Source of the DNA: Trichodelitschia bisporula
Taxonomy: Eukaryota
Length of the DNA stretch: 64,000 nucleotides
NCBI GenBank assembly: GCA_010356995.1
Contig: ML996701.1
Span: forward strand, 736,963 to 800,962
Reading direction: 5' to 3'
Part shown: piece by piece, positions 4,272 to 46,999 of the stretch
Layout: every line of letters starts with the position of its first letter
How positions within the stretch are numbered: position 1 is the first letter of the stretch
Translations under genes and position numbers: made by a program
The notes under the pieces: model-generated
Seen by the model: the letters and a program-made list of their open reading frames with translations, nothing else
What the model was told of the DNA's origin: nothing
Database searches by the model: none

Positions 4272-6537
4272 CGTATTCGCGCGAGGCTAGCTAGCGCGGG
4301 GCTGCGCGGGGGCGGGGCGGGCCGGCGCGTGGTGCGGGAAGGCGGTACGGGTGGCTAGTATGAGAGGGAGGCGGGTGGTGGTGGTGGTGGTTGCTTGGAG
4401 GACATGCGGTGCGAGTGTGGAGGAGTGCGGATGGCTAGTGTGCTGTATATACGGTATTCCATGGTTTTGCGCGCCGCGTGATTGCGTCCTCCAAGTGCGC
4501 CGTCGTGGTGGGTCGCGGCGAGGGTGGGAAAGGAGGACGCCACGGTGGGGCCCCCTGCGGATCGAGAATACGTGCAGCGCCCACGACTGGGGTGGAGTGA
4601 CGAAGGATGAGGCGTGTGATAGGGTGTTTGAGTGGTGGATTGCACCTGTTTGAGTTGCGGGTCCGGAGGGAGTGCACGGGAGTCGCGTGGGGAGGCTAAA
4701 TTTTCGCCGAATATCGCTTTTCTTCCATGGGCAATTCGCTTTTCGCACTTCCAGGCCTATCGCTACGAACTGCATGTTACATGCGAACCGCTGCGAATCT
4801 TGACCGCTTCATACACTTTCAAGTTTCTTAATTGGATGTGCTTCCTCCGGTTCCAGTAAGAAGGGTCGAGGAGGTAAGGGAGATCCTTCTTCAGAGACCG
4901 AATACTGTTTCAGTATGTCGGCGGCACAGCATTCACCCGCAACTGCAAGAGATGCCTCTTCACTGCGAACCGAACGGTCTCGACCATGCGCTGGGGCGCA
5001 ACGAGATTGACCGCTTCGGCAAGGAAATTTGCGACGTAGTGCTCGGAGAATGCGCCGTGATACAGTTCTCGTCAAGTCGACCAAGTCTTATTTGTGGAAA
5101 GGACTACCCCAAGAGTACGGTACCGAGTTCGTGATGGTCATTTGGCGATGCGGAAATCGCACGCACAACTCGTAGGGCGTCTCAATTATCTCGGCGGTCG
5201 TGCTTCACATACTCTTAAAATATCTTTTCCGACAACCTTCCGACCAGCGCTGCTGATCTCTCACCATTGAGGAGGAGCTTCCGGTTGACAACAGCGTAGC
5301 ATGAGCGGGCCCAGGAAGCCAGTGTGAAAGTCCAGTTCCAGTTGGCGATCTGGCCAATTCGGAAGCCGCATCTCGATGTGCTCCAGCTGAAATTTACCAT
5401 AGTCACTTAGAACTAGGTTACGCCTCCAGGCCGTCTGTCGGTTGGCAAACCCGCCCCTACTTCTTGCAGTGCAAGAGAGCAACACCACGCATCAGCACAG
5501 AGTAGTCGAAAAGGTTCGATTTGGCGATCGCTCTTCCGACTCGGAACGTCAGCCCTGATATTTGAGAGAAGAAGACCCGCGCAGCCGGGTCCTGAGGAAA
5601 GGTTGCACAAAGTCCGCCACCATGTTCGTGCAGAGGCAGCCATGTTCGGCTTCGGTCGCGCGTCTAACACAGTACAGTACGTCCGTACGCAACCTACTCG
5701 CGTCAGGCATGCTGCGCTGCCCTCTCCAGCGAATAACGGAACTTGAGCGAATGGCATTCCGAGCTCTCTTTGTCACCCCTAAGCCATCCCGCTACAGCCA
5801 GAAAACGGGCGCTGCAAGCCCGTGCAAAACCGATATTCAGCGCATGTTGCCTCCATGGTCGCTGCAGGGGTATGTCAATTGGACTGCGTAACGGTGCAGA
5901 CGCCGTACACGCGACGTATCGGATGGGAGACCGCAGGTGTCTATGTATGGGTTACGGCGCTTGTGCTGCGGTAGTCCGGGGGCGGCGGCGGGTGGATGCG
6001 CGGAGGAACTGTGCCACCCAGGTGCAGCGCGGTCTAGGGTGGCCGCTTGGGGAGACGTCCCGACAGGCCGGGCCGATGTATTGTCGTCTTGTTTGGATGC
6101 GCGGATAGGAGACGGCGACGCGGGTGATGCCGCTGGCCTGGATGTGCAAAGTAGCTCAAGGTGACGAGGAATTTGGCACACAAGACATGTCTCTATGGTT
6201 ATCGCACATCCCAATCATCAGTCGAAGGGGAATCTTGTCGTGCTTGTCTCCCAGGGTTGGCGTCGAAGCCGTCGTATTGCGTGAATTCCGACATGACCGA
6301 TTGGGCGAGGGGATTGTTCCTATGCGGTGTGGATGAGTGATGGTGGAGAAACACGGAATGGAGCTGAAGTTGTCCTTTGGAGACATGAGGTTGTGGAGAG
6401 GCGACGTTCTTCAATGAGAGAGCCTTGGTGCCTGTTGCGCCCGTCGAGCCCTGCCGCAACGATGAGCAGTCCCCAAGCGGATCAAAAATAATTGTGTGGG
6501 TAATATACAATTAAAATGCTCCACGTTGCATCAAACA

Positions 6538-6634
6538 GGTTGTGTGGTCTAGTGGTATGATTCTCGCTTAGGGTTCACCCTGAGTTCCACTGGAAACATG
6601 CGAGAGGTCCCGCGTTCAATCCGCGGCACAGCCC
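6538..6634 (+). tRNA. tRNA-Pro(AGG) with 25-nt intron (6574-6598)
   Basis: Acceptor GGTTGTG/CACAGCC, D-arm TGGTCTAGTGG, anticodon arm CTCGC-TTAGGG..T-GCGAG, T-loop GTTCAATC, T-runs downstream. Confidence 0.95.
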
Positions 6635-6814
6635 TGTCTTTTGTCTCTTTTTGCCGTGCTAAACGATCACTCCCGGGCTTTCGGATCGCGTCGGGACCGA
6701 TAAAAACCGGTTTCGGGCAGCCGGGAGGGAGAGGGAACTGTGGCCGAGGAAATGTACCGTGTCTATTTTTGTCATTTTCCGGTAAGGTTTTTGGTAGAGA
6801 TCCGGGCTATGCTT

Positions 6815-6896
6815 ACGGGCGCCGCGGAAAATCCTCCATGCCCACGGGTGTCGCGGAAATCCTCCCATGCCTACGGGCGTCGCGGAAATCCTCCAA
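6815..6896. repeat. Three tandem copies of a 29-bp unit upstream of the ceramidase gene
   Basis: Units start at 6815, 6844 and 6873: ACGGGYGYCGCGGAAA(A)TCCTCC(C)ATGCC. Confidence 0.9.
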
Positions 6897-7136
6897 TTGG
6901 CGCCAAAGGTGTATAAGCGCGCTGAAGCACCGGCTTGAGTCTTTGTTCATCACCACGCACCTACCGAACGACCCACGTTTATGAGGCTGAACAGGGCCAG
7001 CCCTAGTGCTTAGCAACCCGGACATCAAGTGTGGCGTCAGCTCCACCTTCGGCCCCCACACGTCAAGTTCTGACCGTGTGCGACCGTTGAGACAAACGTC
7101 TGCATCCTCTCTTTCAACATCCGATTCTCTTTCGAT

Positions 7137-8200
7137 ATGCCATCCTGGTTGCCCTCCACGCCGTACCCGGCAGCTAAAGACGGGTTCTGGGGGCCTGTAA
7201 CTTCGACGCTGAATTGGTGCGAGGAGGTACGTCACGTCACATGTGCGGTTGCGTGTTCTAACCGCGTCTAGGACTATTATGCCTCGCATTACTTGGCTGA
7301 GATAGTTAACTCGTTGACGAACCTCATTTTCGTCGTGCTGGCCTTCAAGGGCATCGCCAATTGTCTCCGCAATGGGCATGACACCGTCTTCGTCGTCGCC
7401 TTCGTCAGCTACCTCCTCGTCGGCCTCGGCAGCTTCTTCTTCCACGCCACGCTGCTGTGTACGCCTATGCCCTACGTGCTTCAGCTACCAGTCTACTAAC
7501 CCGCCCCAAAAGACCCAATGCAGCTCGTCGACGAGCTCTCCATGATCTACACCACCAGCATAATGACCTTCGCCCTCTTCACCCGCGCCGCCGCCCGCCC
7601 CGCCCGCCTCTTCTTCGGCCTCCTCGTTGCCTCCCTCGCCGCCTTCATCACCGCCTACTACGTGTACCTCGGCGACCCGCTCTTCCACCAAAACGCCTTC
7701 GCCGTGCTCACTGCCTTCACCATCCTCCGCAGCCTGTACATCATGGAGACGCGGTTGCGTCCGTCGCGCCGCTGTAAAGACCTGTCCCTTACGCCTGCCG
7801 AGCAGGCCCGCCGCGATGTAAGGGATGATGTGATTGTGACGACGATGTGGCGCTTTGTGGGGCTTGCGCTCGCGGCGGCGGCGGGGGGGTTTGCGATTTG
7901 GAATCTGGATACACTGCATTGTGACGCGATTCGGCGCTGGAGGCACCGGGTTGGATTGCCGTGGGGTGTGTTGCTGGAGGGGCATGGGTGGTGGTGAGTT
8001 CTCGCGGCAGTGCGGTGTGATACGGCTAGAACTAATTGGGCAGGCATATCCTCACGGGGATTTCAGCGTATTATCAACTCATGTGGGGCGTGTGGTTGAG
8101 GTATTGCCTGAATGGGCAGCAGGATGATGTCGAGATGGTGTGGCCGTCGATGTGGTCTGTCCCGGTGGTGGAGAAGGTGAGTGCGAAGAAGCGCAACTGA
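7137..8200 (+). CDS. Alkaline (phyto)ceramidase, CREST superfamily (Ypc1/Ydc1-like), 4 exons
   Basis: FWGPVTSTLNWCEE|DY, GLGSFFFHATL, MQLVDELSMIY and LEGHGWW|HILTG motifs. Canonical introns near 7227-7271, 7458-7512 and 7994-8043. Confidence 0.93.
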
Positions 8201-10201: not shown

Positions 10202-12560
10202 GATAGGATACTTGCGGGATGGAGCCCAGGCGGCAATATACAAGCCGGCGAAGGATGTCGTGCAATTAAGAGAGGAGTGGGATGCAGAGGTTTTGGGACG
10301 AAATCAAGGGTTGGCCCCGGGTGTTTGTACGTTGGTAGGACGCCGCGCCCGTCCTCGCTCTCGTCGGTCAATGTGTGGGCGCATCGGACAGCAGGCTAGA
10401 CCGGGCCTCCCTAGAGCAAGGCGTCCGCATATACGCTTTCTGGTACGCCTCAGGCTGGGCATCGTGGGCCAGAAAGGGGATAGCGAAGACATTTACGAGG
10501 GCTGGTCGAGATACGGTCCGTGCTGGTGGACAAAGAAACGCCAGTTCATAAAACATATAAACTATAGGATGCTTCAGCCACTGTTCTATTCAGACACCAT
10601 ACGCACTGGACGACGAGATTGAAGTCGAGAGTGAAGGAGAGAAGACGAAAAGGCTGCCCGTCTTTTACAAGGCTCAGAGGGGATCCCGGGCATCAGCAGC
10701 AGCGAACACGAACGCGGCCAACATTTACTGGAGTTGGGGGCGGAAAGGCTGAAGTCTTGGTGTTGAAAGGATCGAGCCAGCCGAGGCTTGGCTGCATGGT
10801 ATAGCGGTGATTCCCGCGAACACTGCCAACAAAAGCTCGGCACCCAACACCAGCGACGGCGAGGAGAACGGCAGCCCTGCTCACCGATACGAGCAACACT
10901 GAGATTGAACGAGAACCTCGTGGAGATTCTTCCGGCTGAATGTCCGATTCAGCGCGCAAGTCACTATATGATGCGCGGCGTGGGAAGTGACAAGTGATGT
11001 CGTGAGAACTGCGCGATGTCCCCGGTCTTGGTGTTGAAGTCGGTGACCTGGAACCTGGTTCTTCCCCGCCGAGCCCCTAACTCCTTCGCGTCAAACCCTA
11101 TTTTGGGCCACGGCCTGACTTCAATCTCGCATCCCAGCCCCCCGCCCTACCGGTTTCTCTACAATACTTATATTCGTCAACTGCGCCTCCGCTTGCAAGA
11201 CCTCCGTCATGGTCGCGCCTGAATATGATTCCTCTTTGTTCCGGCACCAGCCACTTGGGGGCGGGTAAACGGTGGCTCGACGGCCACGATTGCTGCGGTT
11301 GCGGTTCTGTCGGCTTGGGCTAATAGCCGTTGTCCAGCGCTGACGCCGAGACCGTAGTCGTTCTTGATTGCTGATATGTATAGCGTGTGAAAATGGGGAA
11401 GTACTCCGTACTGGTGGCCTTACGCAGCAATGTTAAATACAACTTACTGTTGTAAGAGCCATGAGAGCGATTCTTTGACGACCGAACGACACAGCCGATG
11501 GATTAACATTCTGACACAACGGCCGGGTACGCAGAGTCGCCTTGTACAGCAGGACGTGCGATGAAATCTCCACACACCGTTCGTGGCTGTCCGTCACGGA
11601 ATATTCCGATATCCCTCCAGACTTCTTTTTCCAGCGCTCTGCTTGTCATGACAACCAGACATCATTGTTTGGTTCGGCTTTGAGTCAGCTCATAATGCAC
11701 AGCTTCATCGCTATTCCTGCAGCAGGACAGCCGTGAATTGTCAGCTTTACGGCGTGCCCCATGGGGATCTTCTTTTTGTTCCCGCGTATTGTAACCCCCA
11801 CCGTGGCCACGAGGTCGGATTCTCTCGGGCCAAGTGCGGGGCCGTTGGAGGGGTAGTCGCTGTTGTGGAACGACAGTTGATGAGAGCATCTGCTGCGGAG
11901 TGTATTCCGGCTATGTTAGTGGGGTACTGTGAGGCAATGGACTTGCCTGACTCCGTGCGCCAGCAATTCGTGGATCTCTTTCATTAGACATTCCCTTGAC
12001 TGAGGAGGGCAGTTCAGAGCATTGCATGTGGTACGGGGCTAAAGCAAGACCAGTAAAGAAGAGTCGTCTGAGGAGAATCGAATGAGATGAAGCTCGGCTC
12101 TGGAAATATATTCTCCTCCCAAAGGCCGCACATGAACCTCATGTACCCTCCAGCAGACCCCACAGCGAGCCTCTCAACTATCCATCTAGATCACTAATCC
12201 TCATTCCACCACCATCTCCGTCCGCGAGCTTCGGAGCTGCTTCCTTCCTCGGTATCCCATCAGCCCCAAAATAGCCCCACGTGGTGCCTCTGGAGCCCTG
12301 CCAGCACACAAGATCACAACAACCCCATCTGGCAGCTAATCTCGCCTCTTTCATCTATCCCGTCAGCAAATATGCCTCAGTTCGTATTCGCCCAAATGAG
12401 CATTAATGTGGGTAAATTAACGGCCTTATGTCCTACCACTCGGCTCGTGGCGGCGATATTGGCCACCGAGGTACCTATCAATGGGAGAATACAGCAGCGC
12501 AGTTGCTGATGAGAACAGTAACACAATGTTGACTTCGAAGCTTAGCAGCGACTGCCATCC

Positions 12561-12590: not shown

Positions 12591-13270
12591 ATCCATCAGT
12601 CAGAAAGCGCCTTCAAAGAGCCGCGAGCTCCGGTAGGTTAGACACGGAGTACGACAGCAACACCATACCACGTTCCACGATGCATCCCAACCAGGCCACA
12701 CTACGGCCGATTCCAAATTCCCCATCTATCAAATTAGCCTTAATACCTCCCCGCACTCTCCCTTGAGCCCTCAAAAATGCCCCAAATCCGTCCTCCCAAG
12801 CCCCCGCTAACCGGCGATCATAATACCACCTCGTACACCATCTAGAACCATTTCATTCCAGAACTTCTCCGCGCCAACTCCACCAATCCTCTCCTGGGCC
12901 AAGCCGATCTGCTCTGGGAAGCACCCGGCTGGAAGGGAGCATTTAGCCCGCCGGGCCCAAGTATAGAGCCTCACGATATCCGAGCGATGGGTGTGCGCTA
13001 TGAATACTTGCTTGGTGATGCTGTGCTGATGATGATGCTATTCACGATGATGCCGAGGCGGAGAAAAGAGGGAGACGGATACGGAGATGACTGAAGTCGG
13101 CAAGCGGCGGGCGGCCGTGAAGAGACAGAGCAGGAGACGGTATGTATATAAGGGGCCGAATCCTCCACCTAAGAAGCATCATCACCAGCAACAGCATCCT
13201 CAGCATCCTCAGAACCACCAGCACTTCAATCCTTCAATCCTCCCACCAACCAACCACCCAATCAACCAAA

Positions 13271-13692
13271 ATGCATTTCTCCACCATCCTCCTCGCTGCC
13301 CTAACCAGCACCTCCACCATCGCCGCCCCCGCCCCGGCCCCAGCCCCAAACACCCTCTCAGCCCGCGCCACACCCCTCATCGACCTCTGGCAAGACAGCG
13401 GCTTCCTCGGTCTCAAATTCACGGGCAAGAGCAACGTCGGGACTTGTGAGAACCTGGCTGGCAGCGGGTTTAACAACAATGTCAGCAGTGGGAAGGCGAA
13501 GCCCGGTTTCAGGTGCACGATTTGGGTGTAAGTGGTCCAGTGATGAGTGATGAGAAAGGGGATGTGGCTGATGAAAACAGGAACAAGGACTGCGATGGCA
13601 CGGGGTTTAGCTTCAATGCTAATCCGGGGAGCAATCAGTTCCCGTCTTGGATTGATAATAAGAGTAGTAGCTGGAAGTGTGTTGCGGCTTAG
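13271..13692 (+). CDS. Small secreted betagamma-crystallin-like protein (about 122 aa, 4 Cys)
   Basis: Signal peptide and a propeptide ending SAR. Intron 13528-13580. Two repeats LWQDSGF.G...FNNNVSSG and IWVNKDCDG...IDNKSSSWKC. TATATAA at about 13145. Confidence 0.8.
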
Positions 13693-39809: not shown

Positions 39810-39831
39810 CTACCACTCCGAACCTGAGTCG

Positions 39832-39867
<36 letters not shown>

Positions 39868-42064
39868 GAACTGCCCTCTGACTTATCCTCGTCCTTCTGC
39901 TCCCGGAACCTCTTAACCGCCGTATCATTCGACTCTTGAAGCATGAGCATGTTCAAGCCGTACTTCCCGCCGTCGACAAAGTGTGGTAGGTACAGTTGCA
40001 GGTCCGTATGGTCCTTCAGCGGGCAGCCGGGTAGTGGATCCGTAATGAGCACCTTCAGGACGACACTAGTTTCTGATGCCGCTTGAATGATGCGCTGCAC
40101 TAACTTGACAGAGTCGGCATCACTCCCAAATACCCGCGAAAACGACTCCAAGAGAATGAACATCGTCTCTTTGTCCGGTAGCAGGCCGAGCAGCCGGCCA
40201 AAGAGTGCTATGCCGTGCTTGAACGTCTCCCGGCTCCGCTTGCTCCACTTGGCGTCGCTGAGGAATCCAAGATGGACGGTTGGCCGATGCTTTTCTATGA
40301 ATGCCAGCAGCTGACCATTGAGACTCCTTAGAATGGCTATCGGGCCCGCATCCTCGTCCGTGCAAGACAAGTTCGTCCTCAGCCCGCAGAAGAAAGACAG
40401 CACCGGCGACTTGGCCCCTCTGCCGAGCGACTCCGCTAGCATAGCCACGGTGAAAGACATGGCATTTTTCAGGTCCGACGGAGGATCCTCTGGTTCAATC
40501 ACCATGACGCAGCCGTCAGTCCGCGTCACCCATTCGAACATCTCCTGTGAGTTCATGATCCACTGCGCCTTGTCTTTCTCTCCCAGGCTGAGGTTCTCCA
40601 TGCCGTCGAGACACTCCTTTATATCATCTGCGGGGTCGGGGTTGAAGTCGCCTAAGCCATCGATCCATTCGGAGACTATCTCCGTGTTATCTTCTACGGC
40701 GAATACGGAGCCGCTCGTGGCGCTTTCGATCGTTCGCTGGCGTTTCAGTCCAGAGAATACGTTCTCTCGTGCTCGATCGATGTCCACTGCTGGTGTTAGT
40801 CGCAGCCAATATTCCACCGCGTCACTTGCCTGTCCCGTCTACGGGATTGAAGGATGGATTCCCCGCCAGGAACTGATAGAACCCAGTATATACTTCCGCG
40901 TGCAGCTGCTCAAGGAATTTCTGATCACGGTGATCTAAGTACTTCTGGAGATTTTCCGCGATCAGCTTCATGCCTCCCTCGTTGCTTTCCTTCATTGCTG
41001 GGACCGTCAGTAACCTTAAAGCTCAAGAGAACCAACGACCTCACCTTCAAGTGACGCAGCGAGATTGACGACTATATCCTTGACTTGCTGCCCGTTCTCC
41101 TCGATCCTGCCCATTCGCATCTGGGCGCAGATGTTGACTTGCTCCTGGAACTCGGCTATGCTTGTGTCCAATCCAGCCAAGGCTTCTGTTATGGTGCCAT
41201 TGTTCTTGAACTTGGACTTGAAATTCTCGCCCATGTTCATGGACAGCTTGTCGACGATGCGCTCGAGGACTACGAATATAGAGAGGAACACGGAATCGGC
41301 AGCGTATTTGAGCTTCTTTGACTGGACATGCACGCTGGATAGCTGCTGGACGGTGTTCAGCTTTCGCGGGATGTCGGCTAGGGCGCTCTGGATCTCCTTC
41401 CGCATGTTTTCGTGGTTTTCGATGCCCTGGTGAGTTAGATGAGGCCTCACGATTTCATAGCGATTGCCTAGCAATTGGCACCACTCACAGCAAGAATCAC
41501 GGTGAATGCACCGCAGATAATGGACCCGTAGGTGTCGTTTGGCACAAAAGTGAGCAAAGTCGACAGCGTCGCTTTGTGCTTCGCAGTAGCCCTGAAGCAC
41601 TTGCGGATAATGCGCATGGCTCCCTTTGTGCTATCCGATCCCTCCTTTCTCTCCTGAATCTTGGTTGCAATGGCGATGACATCCTCAATCTTGTAGTCCT
41701 TCGGATCTTTGATTTCGATGTTGAGCTTCTTATCCAGCTTCCGTTTCCTGAGCGTCTGGATGAAGCTGTTCAGCGTCTCCTGGAACACCTTCATCTGGGC
41801 CTCAGATTCCGCGTAATAGTCTTCACTGCGCGCGTCAGAAGGAGCTTCATTCGATCTTCAGAGCAAAGCCTACGTAGGAACCTCCGCCCGCGGCACAAAT
41901 TTGTCTAGTTCCTCTACAAACTCCAAATTCGCACTCGAGGCCGCAGCCGGCCCCGCCACCTGCGCGACGATGGTTTCCCCACCACGCAACTCAACGTATT
42001 CGGCTACGGTATTCGTGAGCACCCGTGGGCGCATCACCAGCGGCTGCTCCTGCACTTGCGCCAT
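39810..42064 (-). CDS. Hypothetical protein: helical N-terminal domain plus degenerate NACHT/STAND-like P-loop region and acidic tail (5 exons)
   Basis: Introns about 41826-41873, 41430-41487, 40994-41045 and 40787-40829 (GC-AG). LLTFVPNDTYGSIICGAFTVIL in the N-domain; AQWIMNSQEMFEWV..VLSFFCG..ILRSLNGQLL..LFGRLL..MFILLESFS..LKVLITDP; poly-Asp end. Confidence 0.75.
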
Positions 42065-42992
42065 GATGGTATCGCACTACAAGTGAGCGAGAGAAGCGAA
42101 CCAGTGTAGACGTTTCTTCGACGTTCGTGGTTCAGAGGATCGTCTGCAGCCTTCGGTCGTAGAGCCGCAGCACCAGGTTCGAGCACTGCCCCGCCCCCGC
42201 TCGTAGCCTTGCTGCCTCTCCCCATGTCTGAGGCTGAAGTAAATTTCGGGCATGCATGGGGTTGGGGGCCTAATGCACGCACGGCCCGCGTCTGGCGCCA
42301 TTATGGGCATACGGGCGAGCGAAAACTCGTTCTCTGGCCTGTCATCCGGCCTCACAGGCGTGCGGCGTCCAATCCTCGCTGTCGTGCTGCGGGGCGTCGA
42401 AAGTGTGAACGCCAGCCTTGTGTGAGGCACGAAACACGTTCCGTTGCAGAGTGATGGGCAGGCTCGCAGCTGCAGCTAGGGGTGCGGGTACTTGATTGAT
42501 GTTGATACTGGAGGCCAAGCTTGACCGCCAGGAATGGATGAGTGAGGCAACTGTAAGTTTGGCTGATGGATCATGTAAGGATACTTGACGCCAAGAACGC
42601 CGTCCTAGTTGCAGCGGGGGTTTAGTTGGACGTCTTCGCTTGGGGATGGCGATACGGGCGGTTGGCTAATCAGCGAACCAGGGTTGCGGCTGAACTGCAC
42701 CCACTATCCGGTGCGGGACGAAGCGACCAGACAGCGGGGAGGGATTGCGCCATGGCGGATTGGGCATGGCCGGGGTGCTGAATAGCGTTTGCCCGTTGCT
42801 GTGGTGCGGGGTGGTGTTACTCCGGTCAGTCCAGCACCTACAGCTAGCGGGGGTGGTTGGGGAGGAATCGTACATATTAGCGTAGCCTTGCTGTTTGGGC
42901 GGGGGCGCCAGAAAACTGGTAACTCTTTGTCCAGCTTTCTCGTGAACGCTGAGCGTCGAGAGTTGCATTCTACGAGAGAGTTTTTTATCGAA

Positions 42993-45900
42993 ATGACAAT
43001 GACGCCAAAGCAGCGAATGCCGGCGCCCAACGAGGAAGGTCCTACGAGTACGTATCCCGCCCCCGAATTCGAGCGCTGGCTAACAGCTTCAGACCCGGAT
43101 CTCCTCTCCCCGGAGAAAGCGACCGACCGCTCTGGCACCAGCACGGCCAGCTCCGTCTCTGATCAGCTATCTACCGATGTCACCCCGCAAACCACCGTCT
43201 CTAGCTACTCCGGAGATGACAGTCCGACCCCCAAGGCCACAGAAACAGTCTTGACCCCCGCTCCTAGCGAGGGTGCTTCTACAGAGGCAGTCCTGGGAGA
43301 AGCTTCCGGCGAAACACTCGCCGGCGACGCTCCAAGCGGCGAAACCGAAGCCGGCAGGGAACCTGCGTCCGCCGAAGCCGCCAGTGGCGATGCTACCGCC
43401 GGAGCCGAACTGACTGCCGAAACTACAGAGGCCGGACCGAGTGGCGATGCACCAACCGGCGAAGATGCGGAAGCCAAAGACCCGCTCGACTTTTTGTCGC
43501 CTGAAGCGGCAGCGCAGATCGAGCGCATCACTCGTGCGATGATCGATGACAAGACGACAGAGAGCGGCGGCGAGGAAGATGAGGACTACAACGCCCCATT
43601 TGATGCCTACGGACGGCCTAGGTCGGGCCGCATCGCGAGCGCGAACCGGCTCAACGCCCAGACGCTCTACCGGCTGTATTTGCACAAACTGAATCCGTCG
43701 GTGAACTACAAGGGGCTGAAGAACGAGAAGGGATTCAAGCTGATCAAGAGCTTTGTCGATTACGTCCGCGTGCTCGAGGAGCGTGTCGAAGTGCTCGAGT
43801 CGCGCCGCGAGGAGCCCGAACCCGAGCGCGAGGAATCGGTTGTGCCGCCGGAGCCGGAGCCCGAGCCTGCGCCGCCGAAGGCGGAGGAAGAGGCTGTGCC
43901 GGAAGTGCCGCCTGAAGAGCCGAAGGAGCCGGAGTTCGATTGTACGCCGAAGTGGTACGATGTTGCGAAGCACAATTTCGGCCCCGATGGGCGGTACGAG
44001 GACGACAACCGCCAGGGGACGTATGCGAGCACGTTGGACGCTGAGGGGTTGATGCGTGTGCTTTTCCGCTGGTCGGACGACGTGGCGCAGAAGCCGCCGA
44101 AGCTGGAAGAGGGTGTGCAGCCGGATGGGCGTCACGTCGAACCGCTGGAGATTGGCATCTGCTCGGAGCCGATTGCTGAGTATTTCCAGGAGCTGATGGG
44201 GATTGAGAATGCGCTTCCTAGCAACTTGGTGCGCATTTCTAAGCCCTTCCGCCCGCTGCTGCGCAACCTGGACTCCCTGAGGGATCACTTGACCAAGTTG
44301 GAGGGGATGTTTGGGGACAAGAAGGAAGGAGATGCGGAAGGAGAGGCGGAAGAGAAAGACGAGAAAGCTGAGAAAGACGACAAGGAAAAGCCTGAAGGCG
44401 AGGAAGCTGAAGTCGCAAATGCTGAGGAGAAGACTGAAGGCGGGGATGCTGAGGAAGAGAAGACGGACGAGATGCCGTACCCGCCAGGCCCAGAGGATGA
44501 GGACAAGTCCATCAAGTCGTATGAGCGTCGCCCCGCCCTCGAGCACTTCCGTGCCTTGATTCAGTTCGTCGACAAGTACTTTGCTAAGCAACTCAGCCTC
44601 CTCAAGGGCGTCAAGGCCGGCAAGGTCGCGCGCCTCGCGTTTGACAACCTCTGGATGCTCTTCGACTCCGGCGACAACATCTACTCCTCCCAACAGCAGG
44701 GCGGCCAGACACTGCGTGGCGAAGACGATGAAACGCATGTCAGCAAGCGGCGTGACGTGCCACAGGCCTACCGCGTGCTGGCCACCATCGGGGGCGTCCC
44801 GCTTCAAAAAATTCTGGCGCCGCGGAGCTTAAACACCGAGTTCGACGCCATGGACGACTTGTTCTTTGCGCCGTACTATCAATGGCGGCCTCGAAACAAC
44901 CAGTTCCGCGGCCTCGGGACGGGTCTCGGACAGCGCGCCGATAGGCGGCTAGGAGGACAACGTGGGCCGGTGCAGGCCCAGGAGCAGCCCAAGCGCAACT
45001 ACTCGCAGCAGATGAAGGGGAACTACTCGCCGCTCTACGTTCACTGCTTCTACATCGACTTCGACGGCACCAAGTACGGCACCGTTACCGAGATCTTCCA
45101 GTTCAAGCCCTATGACGACGAAGTCGAGGTCCGCAGCCTCGAGGCTTTCCCGCTGCAGTACCTCGACCCTAACCCCGCGGCCTTTGACGACCCGGAGCGC
45201 TCGCCGGAGCATGAGGCCAAGCCGCCGCCGGAGCTCGACATGCTGCTTGAGCGCGGCAAGAAGTTCATTGACTCGACTGTCGTGTCGCACATGGCCTACG
45301 ATGGCCAGACTGTCGGCGAGAGCCGCGAGGAGATCAGCAGTCCCGTGATTGTGGACATGAAGCTCGCATTCCAGGAGGCCGAGCGGTCGCTGGGCGACGC
45401 GAGCGCCGCGCCGCCGGAGTTTACCTCGCTCACCAAGTTCTGGCCGCGGATCCGAGAGCCGCAGTTCCATGAGTTCATCGGGTATGACAGCTGCACGACG
45501 CGGTGGTGCCAGACGCGCGACCACCAGTTCGATCACTACGAGCGGCGCCAGAAGAAGCTGCGCGAGAAGATGGAGCCGAAGATCAAGTCGCTGCTCGAGG
45601 AGTTTGAGACGGACAAAGCGGACCATCGCGAGGGTTTGAAGAAATTTAAGGAGTACATGGAGGAGAAAGATCTCGTGCGCTTGCTTCCGGGTGTTGTACG
45701 GGCCTTTGCACTGCGGAACCGCAAGTGGGTCCAGGTTGACCTGCGGAAGCTGCAGTACATCAAGCAAGCGGATGGCTGGAACGATCTTGTCCTTCCCAAG
45801 GGCCACCGGAAGATGGTGCAGGCTATGGTCGAGACACACACGTCGTGGTCGAACATGCAGCGCAAGGAGAAGGTCGAGATGGATCTTGTCCAGGGCAAGG

Positions 45901-46999
45901 GCAAGGGGTGTATTATCCTTCTGCACGGCGCGCCGGGCGTGGGCAAAACTTCGACTGCCGGTACGTCTCCCGGCACTTTCCTGATACTGCAATGCTAACT
46001 GGTCAGAATGCGTGGCAGCGTACACCCAGCGACCGCTGTACCCGATCACCTGCGGCGACATCGGCTACCTCCCCGAGATCGTCGAGAAGAATATGGAGCG
46101 GCACTTCCGGCTCGCACACAAATGGGGCTGTGTGCTGCTCCTCGACGAAGCTGACGTATTCCTAGCGAAGCGCAGCGTAAGTCCCATGCTCTCACCTCAG
46201 TCCCTCCTAACACCCCCAACAGAAAGACGACGTCAAGCGCAACGGGCTAGTCTCTGTCTTCCTGCGCATCCTAGAGTACTACTCCGGCATCCTGTTCCTA
46301 ACCACCAACCGCGTCGGCGCCATCGACGACGCCTTCCGCTCGCGCCTGCACCTGACTTTGTACTACCCCAAGCTGAGCAAATCGCAAACCATAAAGATCT
46401 GGAAAACGAACCTCGACCGCCTGATCGCCATCAACGAGACGCGGGCGGCCAAAGGCCTGCCGCCGGTCGTCTACGATAAGAAGAAGATCATCAAGTGGGC
46501 GAAGAAGTACTGGGACGCGCTCAACTGGAACGGGCGCCAGATCCGGAATGCCTTCCAGACGGCGGTGGCGCTGGGCGAGTTTGCGAATACGAAGGGTGTG
46601 AATGGCACACCTGGGCGGGATGAAGACGCGCAGGTTTCACCGATCATGGATGTTGAGCATTTTGAAATTATTGCGCGGGCGAGTATTCAGTTTAATGATT
46701 ACTTGCTGTTGACGCATGGGGCGGATGAGGATAAGATGGCGAAGCGGGATATGGTGCGCACCACGGAGCCGGTGAAGAGTAAGTTGTTCGAGTTTGAGGT
46801 TAGCTCGGATGAGTATGATTCGGACTCTTCAGACGAGTCGGAGGAGAATGATAGTGAGTCTTCGTCGTCGTCGGACTCGGATGCGAGTGAGAAGAAGAAG
46901 CGGAAGAAGAAGAAGGCCAAGGCTGAGGTGAAGGACAAGAAGAGCAAGGGCAAGGAGAAGACCAAGGACAAGAAGAAGGACAAGAAGAAAGAGAAGTAG
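42993..46999 (+). CDS. Large fungal AAA+ ATPase
   Basis: Walker A DLVQGKGKGCIILLHGAPGVGKTSTA|ECVA, Walker B VLLLDEADVFL, FLRILEYYSGILFLTTNRVGAIDDAFRSR, WNGRQIRNAFQTA. Introns about 45962-46007 and 46177-46221. Acidic N-terminus; acidic then Lys-rich C-tail. Confidence 0.92.

Follow-up and report, generated by a model that had tools for sequence, protein, structure and literature searches.

A co-inherited head-to-head gene pair in filamentous ascomycetes: a putatively NACHT-derived protein lacking Walker A beside a classical AAA+ ATPase

We analyzed a 64,000-nucleotide stretch of contig ML996701.1 from Trichodelitschia bisporula (Dothideomycetes), here called the window, and focus on two divergent genes within it. 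Gene A, on the minus strand, appears to encode a derivative of the fungal NOD-like receptors (NLRs) that has lost the Walker A motif; gene B, on the plus strand, encodes an AAA+ ATPase. The two genes lie side by side in species across the filamentous ascomycetes, and this linkage is our main result. Gene models were built from open reading frames (ORFs) and sequence.

Gene structures and encoded proteins

The models gave the following layout:

39810..42064, minus strand: gene A, exons 42064..41874, 41825..41489, 41426..41045, 40997..40830 and 40786..39810; 684 amino acids (aa), with a Goodbye/DUF7708-like N-domain, then a putatively NACHT-derived pseudo-NTPase domain
40787..40829, minus strand: gene A intron, 43 nt, GC-AG (GC donor); joint 40786 to 40830, plus-strand ends CT..GC, seen in both public runs described below
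42065..42992, no strand: intergenic region of 928 bp between both start codons; presumed bidirectional promoter
42993..46999, plus strand: gene B, exons 42993..43047, 43093..45960, 46007..46176 and 46223..46999; 1289 aa, a DUF7025-AAA-AAA_lid_13 ATPase

The original prediction, made from the sequence alone, had placed two divergent genes about 930 bp apart. The start codons are indeed separated by 928 bp, the introns are seen in spliced contigs, and every motif that the prediction quoted was found at its place once coordinates were mapped. Contigs of two public runs show joints at all seven introns (four in gene A, three in gene B). An in-frame intron of 45 nt in gene B (43048-43092) had not been predicted and is known from these spliced joints. 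Both runs come from one sample of one study, and their RNA label is a guess; because their contigs lack all seven introns, we read them as transcript-derived, using the joints and leaving depths aside. Both genes are transcribed and spliced, and the evidence for co-expression is the presence of both spliced transcripts in this one sample only. Transcript contigs reach into the intergenic region from either side, into 42097-42423 next to gene A and to about 42979 next to gene B. The only intergenic repeats were short two-copy matches, possibly due to chance.

The gene A protein, all on the minus strand, is divided as follows:

40830..42064: helical N-domain of Goodbye/DUF7708/NACHT_N type plus linker (exons 1-4), assigned from a weak DUF7708 match and language-model similarity
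39978..40607: P-loop-NTPase-like alpha/beta core, residues 61-270 of the last-exon translation, predicted from an AlphaFold2 model, VIA-align and Pfam NPHP3_N
40455..40511: first strand and degenerate P-loop CVMVIEPEDPPSDLKNAMS, replacing GxxxxGK[ST]; in the model, strand 93-99, loop, helix 109-124
40134..40166: strand at the Walker B position, TMFILLESFSR; acidic residue retained (E here, D in 141 of 151 relatives)
40026..40061: fourth strand, VLKVLITDPLPG; K near-invariant (138 of 147), Arg absent here
39813..39872: acidic (poly-Asp) C-terminal tail, ending in Trp

The minus-strand protein had been described as NACHT-like, with a P-loop NTPase fold but no Walker A, and our analyses bear this out. 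An AlphaFold2 model of the last exon (325 aa; 71 sequences) has a mean confidence (pLDDT) of 88.5 and a predicted template modeling score (pTM) of 0.83. In the model, the segment EDPPSDLKN (EPEDPPSDLKNAMS) is the loop that links strand one (93-99) to the next helix (109-124), and it thus occupies the P-loop position. An exhaustive VIA-align search, in which models without a true match typically score 7-8, aligned 161 residues to archaeal Cdc6/Orc1 (Z 12.7, root-mean-square deviation 2.7) and matched residues 61-270 to the nucleotide-binding domains (NBDs) of ZAR1, Avs3, CED-4, NRC2, and Apaf-1 (Z 9.9-10.7). Based on the model, we read the last exon as a genuine AAA+/STAND core. Pfam NPHP3_N (PF24883) covers profile positions 4-162 of 164 in the window protein, with a score of 18.0 bits (E 0.0035) against a gathering score of 24.8 bits. 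It matches 35 of the 62 longer family members at E<=0.01, and scores in relatives reach 42.3 bits (P0139), 39.9 (P0154), 37.0 (P0122), 35.8 (P0136), 34.4 (P0138), 33.2 (P0149), and 26.1 (P0275).

A library of 1.84 billion representative proteins yielded 313 clusters of gene A relatives at E<=1e-3, 138 of them at E<=1e-10, while an alignment-based homolog search gave seven proteins only, with word-sharing candidates crowding out relatives. The best match reaches only 46% identity; the collection therefore lacks the window's own protein, although spliced contigs cover the gene. Gene A may be unannotated in T. bisporula, perhaps owing to its GC-AG intron (40787-40829).

A Walker A motif (G....GK[ST]) occurs in none of 154 gene A relatives and in none of 130 gene-A-like locus ORFs; the family columns at the P-loop instead read E-T-P-P-x-x-L-x-N-P-L-S-F. 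Canonical NACHT domains carry the motifs GxxGxGKS, DGLDE, and KxLxTSRP. Compared with these, gene A has lost the P-loop Lys and the sensor-1 Arg but retained the Walker B acidic residue; strand VLKVLITDPLPG presumably corresponds to the K-x-L-x-T-S-R-P strand. In the alignment, the motifs form a gradient from distant members ('LLVNGNGERKKISPLS', 'FIIIDGITYFEN', 'KVLV..P..SR') to the window ('VMVIEPEDPPSDLKNAMS', 'MFILLESFSR', 'LKVLITDPLPG'). The Walker B region reads LLESFS in the window and IDG..YFE in distant members, the latter to be compared with the DGLDE-type motif. Altogether, the sequence matches and the model support a NACHT (NPHP3_N)-derived P-loop fold without Walker A.

As had been claimed, gene A stops without sensor repeats: the pseudo-NTPase domain ends the protein in at least 150 listed relatives, and neither repeats nor a winged-helix arm were found in them. 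In these 150 relatives (the longest has 764 aa), the match stops within about 60 residues of the C-terminus, and in the AlphaFold2 model the core is followed by one helix and a disordered tail only. With no Walker A GK[ST], sensor-1 Arg, winged helix, or repeats, gene A cannot bind NTP canonically and cannot be an NTP-driven switch alone. The single WD40 match in the family is P0107 (562 aa), which has WD40 repeats at residues 14-197 in place of the Goodbye-like domain and is probably a merged gene model. PADLOC models did not match gene A, and a phmmer search of PDB with the last exon returned acidic-tail matches only. An origin of the pseudo-NTPase domain as a copy of the partner ATPase was considered and rejected, as an hhalign comparison between the gene A domain and the gene B family returned a probability of 4%.

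The N-terminal part of gene A was said to resemble the domains ahead of NACHT in fungal NLRs, and matches in relatives point the same way. DUF7708 is weak on exon 3 of the window gene (14.9 bits; cut-off 25); of 62 family members, 26 match it at E<=0.01. The best of these, the distant member P0139, scores above the curated cut-offs of both DUF7708 (45.3 bits) and NPHP3_N. For residues 1-345 of the homolog P0001, the nearest named clusters in the Atlas carry Goodbye (78%), DUF7708, and NACHT_N domains (score 0.92), and two gene A relatives are named "Fungal STAND N-terminal Goodbye domain-containing protein" in UniRef. The gene A protein has no transmembrane-grade hydrophobic stretch. In its relevant sections, a survey of fungal NLRs relates the core of the Goodbye-like domain to the four-helix bundle of MLKL/HeLo (PMC9815663).

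Gene B, on the plus strand, includes these features:

43752..44270: coiled-coil motif FVDYVRVLEERVEVLE through the 'KPFRPLLRNL' region, in the N-terminal part; conserved in 15 orthologs
44631..45164: DUF7025 domain (Pfam E 2.8e-20)
45927..45953: Walker A GAPGVGKTS, near-invariant in 21 orthologs
46132..46155: Walker B VLLLDEAD, invariant or near-invariant in 21 orthologs
46301..46345: sensor-1 Asn and Arg-finger region TTNRVGAIDDAFRSR; N582, R592, and R594 invariant in the alignment of 21 orthologs
46373..46720: AAA_lid_13, the fungal AAA+ lid (Pfam E 2.3e-17)
46802..46996: Ser/Asp/Glu-rich stretch, then Lys-rich C-terminal tail (Lys-rich part 46892-46996)

All three Pfam domains of gene B score above their cut-offs (DUF7025, 72.9-73.9 bits; AAA [PF00004], 65 bits; AAA_lid_13, 60.8-63.7 bits), and across orthologs a coiled coil and a 'KPFRPL.RNL' segment precede DUF7025. 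The claim that Walker A and B are intact is confirmed by Pfam and by their near-invariance among orthologs; the sensor-1 and Arg-finger roles of TTNRVGAIDDAFRSR are ones that we take from general knowledge of classical AAA proteins. The closest solved AAAs are Rix7, p97, NSF, and Msp1 (E about 1e-7), which belong to the classical AAA clade of protein remodelers. Judged by its sequence, gene B is a classical-clade AAA+ ATPase with intact catalytic motifs, and from its sequence likeness to these four proteins it would be predicted to thread substrates as a hexamer. Two PADLOC models, IetA (E 1.3e-12) and TRIP13 (E 6.5e-9), match the AAA core only.

The public gene B model (EJ06DRAFT_480744; P0155) has 811 aa and is 100% identical to the C-terminal 811 aa of our gene B. 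It begins at an internal Met, and the spliced contigs back the full 1289 aa; the additional N-terminus is long and rich in Ala, Thr, Glu, Ser, and Pro.

Both proteins end in charged tails, which the original prediction had taken to be complementary. The complementarity is real and recurs in the window's subclade, but it is restricted to that subclade and is not the core of the coupling. Most close gene A homologs have an acidic tail (last residue W in 25 of 157, D in 43 of 157), with an acidic run closed by a single Trp in many (...DDDW), and 22 of 23 named partner AAAs have Lys-rich tails (18-32 K). Many distant, equally firmly paired loci lack both tails, so the tails cannot be the basis of coupling, and we set charge complementarity aside as the core mechanism. 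Where gene A lacks the acidic tail (Apiosordaria, Cercophora samala, Cladorrhinum, Gaeumannomyces tritici), the partner AAA carries an additional acidic run at its end, after the Lys-rich stretch; this involves two or three independent lineages only and may be chance.

Linkage and co-inheritance of the pair

Linkage was assessed in named fungi from the names and contig sizes of gene A relatives compared with the best 120 of 379 gene B relatives. Forty named gene A clusters were examined, and 24 were comparable; the other 16 had no gene B relative of that assembly among the best 120, came from another assembly, or lay on 2-kb metagenome contigs. In 22 of the 24, gene A and gene B are on one contig, 10 by locus tag and 12 by equal contig size (34 kb and 144 kb among them), a proxy for the same contig. 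Consecutive locus tags were found in Colletotrichum karsti, Neonectria ditissima, Bogoriella megaspora, Madurella fahalii, Fusarium mangiferae, Cercophora sp. LCS_1, Botrytis aclada, Gnomoniopsis smithogilvyi, Penicillium macrosclerotiorum, and Gaeumannomyces tritici.

A scan of metagenomes with the gene B alignment matched 400 stretches, of which 366 were confirmed; 80 loci were kept and fell into 55 groups (>=90% nucleotide identity). Gene A profiles were searched against six-frame ORFs of the 80 loci, and the 27 groups in which the sequence upstream of the gene B match extends for 4 kb or more were considered evaluable. A gene A homolog lies upstream on the opposite strand, head-to-head with gene B, in 23 of these 27 groups, and three groups with shorter upstream sequence have partial gene A copies. 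Nearly all such loci have both gene A domains, and the architecture is fixed. No third conserved gene or other conserved ORF family accompanies the pair in the metagenome loci.

Two of these loci have unusual arrangements. In L048 (1539-8480), the DUF7025-AAA is directly preceded, on its own strand, by an A-type N-domain (family profile positions 19-237; DUF7708, 29.7 bits) without the pseudo-NTPase domain. Either a 101-nt intron (2338-2438) fuses the ORFs or they abut (stop 2484, ATG 2465), and a hAT transposase fragment (5904-6443) splits DUF7025. We regard this locus as a hint of coupling between A and B rather than proof; an A-type N-domain was found in none of the best 120 of 379 gene B relatives. 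In L067 (2386-6640), two ORFs lie upstream of an A-less AAA and on its strand, one with a HET domain (E 1.3e-26) and one with ankyrin repeats.

Maximum-likelihood trees were built for the A and B proteins of 21 linked pairs, with the Penicillium and Gaeumannomyces pairs outside the set. The A and B trees have 9 of 18 splits in common, where related species share labels and some congruence is expected; 5000 label shuffles gave at most 4, and 3917 of them gave none. Some common splits cross taxonomy. A nine-member clade with 100% support in both trees brings the Botrytis (Leotiomycetes) pair together with pairs from Sordariales and Xylariales, and Madurella (Sordariales) groups with Hypocreales pairs in both. 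These splits indicate that the pair was duplicated or moved as a unit. The nesting of the B. aclada pair among Xylariales/Sordariales and of Madurella with Hypocreales could reflect old paralogous pair lineages or whole-pair transfer between classes. Several genomes carry more than one pair. Contig L071 (1-13609) holds a first pair (A1, 1-2258, minus; AAA1, about 4402-7743, plus) and, in tandem, another whose A-like ORF is at 11609-12475 (minus) and whose AAA piece (13048-13608, plus) lies at the end of the contig.

The pair occurs in Eurotiomycetes, Dothideomycetes, Leotiomycetes, and Sordariomycetes. In L055-L058 and L071, gene B is 74-94% identical to proteins of Tuber magnatum or T. indicum (gene A is 71-76% identical to P0139), and this Tuber-like gene B suggests that the pair is also present in Pezizomycetes. 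We infer from this distribution that the pair arose near the base of Pezizomycotina. A gene B tree with wider sampling places each of three A-less loci, and also the same-strand N-domain locus, as sister to an A-linked locus, so the absences look secondary. The recurrent divergent linkage and co-phylogeny that the original prediction called for are thus strongly present (22 of 24 named fungi, 23 of 27 groups, 9 of 18 splits). Since the pairing is kept across filamentous ascomycetes, the two genes very probably work as one functional unit.

A possible ATPase-gated unit and its alternatives

We favor the reading that the head-to-head pair is an ancient, co-inherited two-gene module of Pezizomycotina, in which gene A is a sensor-less NLR derivative gated by the gene B ATPase; we hold this to be an even call. 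Gene structures, transcription, motif loss, family-wide conservation, linkage, co-phylogeny, and purifying selection were all observed here, and the fold is that of the model and matches described above. Binding of A to B, the direction of control, and the cellular output are proposed from these results. Gene B would supply the ATP-dependent switch that gene A lacks. Gene A may dock on gene B through its pseudo-nucleotide-binding oligomerization domain (pseudo-NOD), and gene B may spend ATP to assemble, disassemble, or unfold gene A. In doing so, it would control exposure or oligomerization of the Goodbye-like domain, whose output would probably be a membrane-directed or signaling activity.

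A bolder form of the same idea is that of an NLR-derived executioner, gated by the AAA+ protein and going back to when Pezizomycotina arose. Here, by analogy with MLKL/RIPK3, the Goodbye-like (MLKL/HeLo-related) domain would be held or released by a dead NOD that serves solely as the docking handle for a dedicated AAA+ unfoldase. We consider this form doubtful.

Several observations weigh against the favored reading. The linkage count uses contig size as a proxy and only the best 120 of 379 AAA matches; 2 of the 24 comparable fungi have the genes on contigs of different size (Gnomoniopsis sp. IMI 355080 and C. orbiculare), and 4 of the 27 locus groups are without the linkage. The apparent fusion in L048 requires an unconfirmed 101-nt intron and is broken by the hAT element. 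On the structural side, the check by model and VIA-align gave a P-loop fold, but Foldseek returned nothing from PDB at E<=0.001 (its top match was ORC, the origin recognition complex, at 6e-3). A NACHT structure is absent from the best 50 VIA-align rows, the gene A family profile has no match in PDB sequences, and hhalign, at the 4% given above, finds no relation of the pseudo-NOD to the partner AAA. The Goodbye-like assignment consists of weak or distant Pfam matches and language-model similarity. Low polymorphism, fixed architecture, and housekeeping neighbors are as compatible with a conserved cellular function as with an immune one. Moreover, cell-death activity of Goodbye-like domains is described as unproven in the relevant sections of the fungal survey (PMC9815663).

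An alternative is that the pairing is kept only by a shared bidirectional promoter, with the two genes co-regulated in one pathway or stress response and the proteins never touching. The intergenic regions are short, at 928 bp in the window and, by crude estimates, 163-465 bp in L059, L052, and L001, and both transcripts occur in one sample, which would suit such an arrangement, as would the fact that A-B binding is itself only proposed. Against this, general knowledge of synteny holds that gene order seldom survives between fungal classes. The common duplication and branching history and the tandem pair of L071 are those of a unit copied whole, and L048 has an A-type N-domain directly before the AAA. 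We regard a purely promoter-based pairing as unlikely.

Gene A could also serve the AAA+ ATPase as a regulatory or adaptor subunit in some housekeeping task, for example nuclear or nucleolar remodeling, without immune or cell-death output. The flanking genes are ordinary (acetyl-CoA carboxylase, major facilitator superfamily [MFS] transporter, short-chain dehydrogenase, gamma-tubulin complex protein, Sae2, and CLPTM1), and purifying selection, low polymorphism, and fixed architecture are in keeping with such a task. Rix7 and p97 are among the closest solved AAAs, and the acidic-Ser and Lys-rich tail of gene B, with its weak matches to SR-25 and Coilin_N, suggests a nuclear or nucleolar role. 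The Lys-rich tail is, however, missing from many paired AAAs; several genomes carry multiple pairs, and the partner is lost in 4 of the 27 locus groups. The Goodbye/DUF7708/NACHT_N type of N-domain is otherwise typical of fungal NLR N-termini in the pertinent parts of two surveys (PMC9815663, PMC12258605). Overall, a housekeeping role is decidedly unlikely in our view.

A nonself or allorecognition (het-like) pair, with polymorphism-based specificity as in paired plant NLRs, would fit the apparent NLR ancestry of gene A and the head-to-head layout. The presence of multiple copies in some genomes and the HET-domain and ankyrin ORFs near the A-less AAA of L067 would also be expected of it. Balancing selection, which the original prediction had listed among its checks, and het-type polymorphism were not found in our small sample of a few metagenome contigs, which is not a population sample. 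Between near-identical loci (four comparisons), the divergence of gene A is 0-1.9% and does not exceed that of the flanks, and the ratio of nonsynonymous to synonymous substitution rates (dN/dS) is 0.14-0.33, with very few substitutions. Gene A is under purifying selection and shows no excess polymorphism, and thus an allorecognition role is not supported. The lack of sensor repeats and the retention of pairs as orthologs across classes also speak against this alternative, which we judge highly improbable.

Finally, the loss of Walker A, sensor-1 Arg, and repeats, together with the 46% identity of the best library match, could be taken to mean that gene A is a decaying NLR remnant by chance beside an unrelated AAA gene, but this is scarcely credible and already contradicted by the 313 clusters with the same architecture, open frames, spliced transcripts, dN/dS below 0.35, and linkage in 22 of 24 and 23 of 27 comparisons.

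The ATPase-gated reading has several implications. Fungal NLR-like proteins are numerous, with mechanisms known for almost none, and this pair is a conserved and simple case with two components. Since its NLR part cannot switch alone and a single dedicated ATPase is the obvious partner, the question can be tested with two genes. The pair also gives a starting point for functional work on the DUF7025 AAA+ family, which has many members in filamentous ascomycetes and for which no role has been described. If the ATPase gates the NLR-derived protein, this would be a new way to build an NLR-like switch. If instead the pair serves housekeeping, it would illustrate clearly how an immune-receptor scaffold can be put to another use. 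In the bolder executioner form, a classical AAA+ would have taken over the switch role of the STAND NTPases found in every known NLR, and much of the expanded DUF7025-AAA family would be the active halves of such pairs.

Comparison with known systems

We found no account of the gene A family or of the pair in the literature, a search that did not cover the supplements of NLR surveys, which might list such proteins; 8.4 million papers and preprints also returned nothing on DUF7025, DUF7708, or AAA_lid_13. What appears new is an NLR-like module with its switch putatively outsourced to an AAA+ partner, and the new result is the linkage.

Two bacterial defense systems represented by the PADLOC models, IetA/IetS and the TRIP13/HORMA part of CBASS, resemble the pair in being two-part systems with an AAA+ protein that acts on a partner. 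However, gene B matches them in the generic AAA core only, and their partners (a protease and HORMA) are unrelated to gene A. Among initiator and clamp-loader AAA+ assemblies such as ORC, nucleotide-dead subunits have the same core fold, and degenerate sites are tolerated within those ATPase assemblies. The likeness of gene A to such subunits is structural only, while its sequence relation is to NPHP3_N/NACHT.

Head-to-head plant NLR pairs, such as RGA4/RGA5 and RRS1/RPS4, are divergent, co-inherited P-loop proteins in which the nucleotide site of one partner is non-functional. The gene A/gene B pair is likewise a divergent, co-inherited P-loop pair with one nucleotide site apparently dead, but its second member is a classical AAA+ rather than another NLR, and it has no leucine-rich repeats, integrated decoys, or sign of diversifying selection. 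MLKL-RIPK3 offers a further parallel, with a four-helix-bundle-type domain fused to a dead enzyme, which an active enzyme from its own superfamily controls. There the enzymes are kinases, whereas here they are P-loop ATPases, and binding, activation, and cell death would apply to the gene A/gene B pair by analogy only.

HET-S/NWD2 and other fungal effector-NLR pairs, as described in two papers (PMC3321046, PMC4344463), also consist of adjacent genes, with an MLKL/HeLo-related domain in one and an oligomerizing NTPase in the other. Those pairs signal through a shared amyloid motif, and none was noted in gene A or gene B. Here, in addition, the executioner-like domain and the dead NOD appear to be in one protein, and the active NTPase is AAA+ rather than STAND.

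Another close comparison is with the fungal NLRs themselves (Goodbye-like plus NACHT plus ANK, WD40, or TPR; PMC4986451, PMC9815663, PMC12258605), with which, going by the pertinent sections of those papers, gene A shares the type of N-domain, the NBD fold, and their order. According to the same sections, NLR surveys pick proteins by NB-domain matches plus repeats, and the P-loop variants that they mention are single-residue only (Dyrka et al. 2014, PMC4986451; Wojciechowski et al. 2022, PMC9815663; the Sordariales survey, PMC12258605). Compared with the canonical fungal NLRs described there, the gene A family is distinguished by its loss of Walker A (0 of 154), repeats, and winged helix, by its fixed architecture, and by its obligatory AAA+ neighbor.

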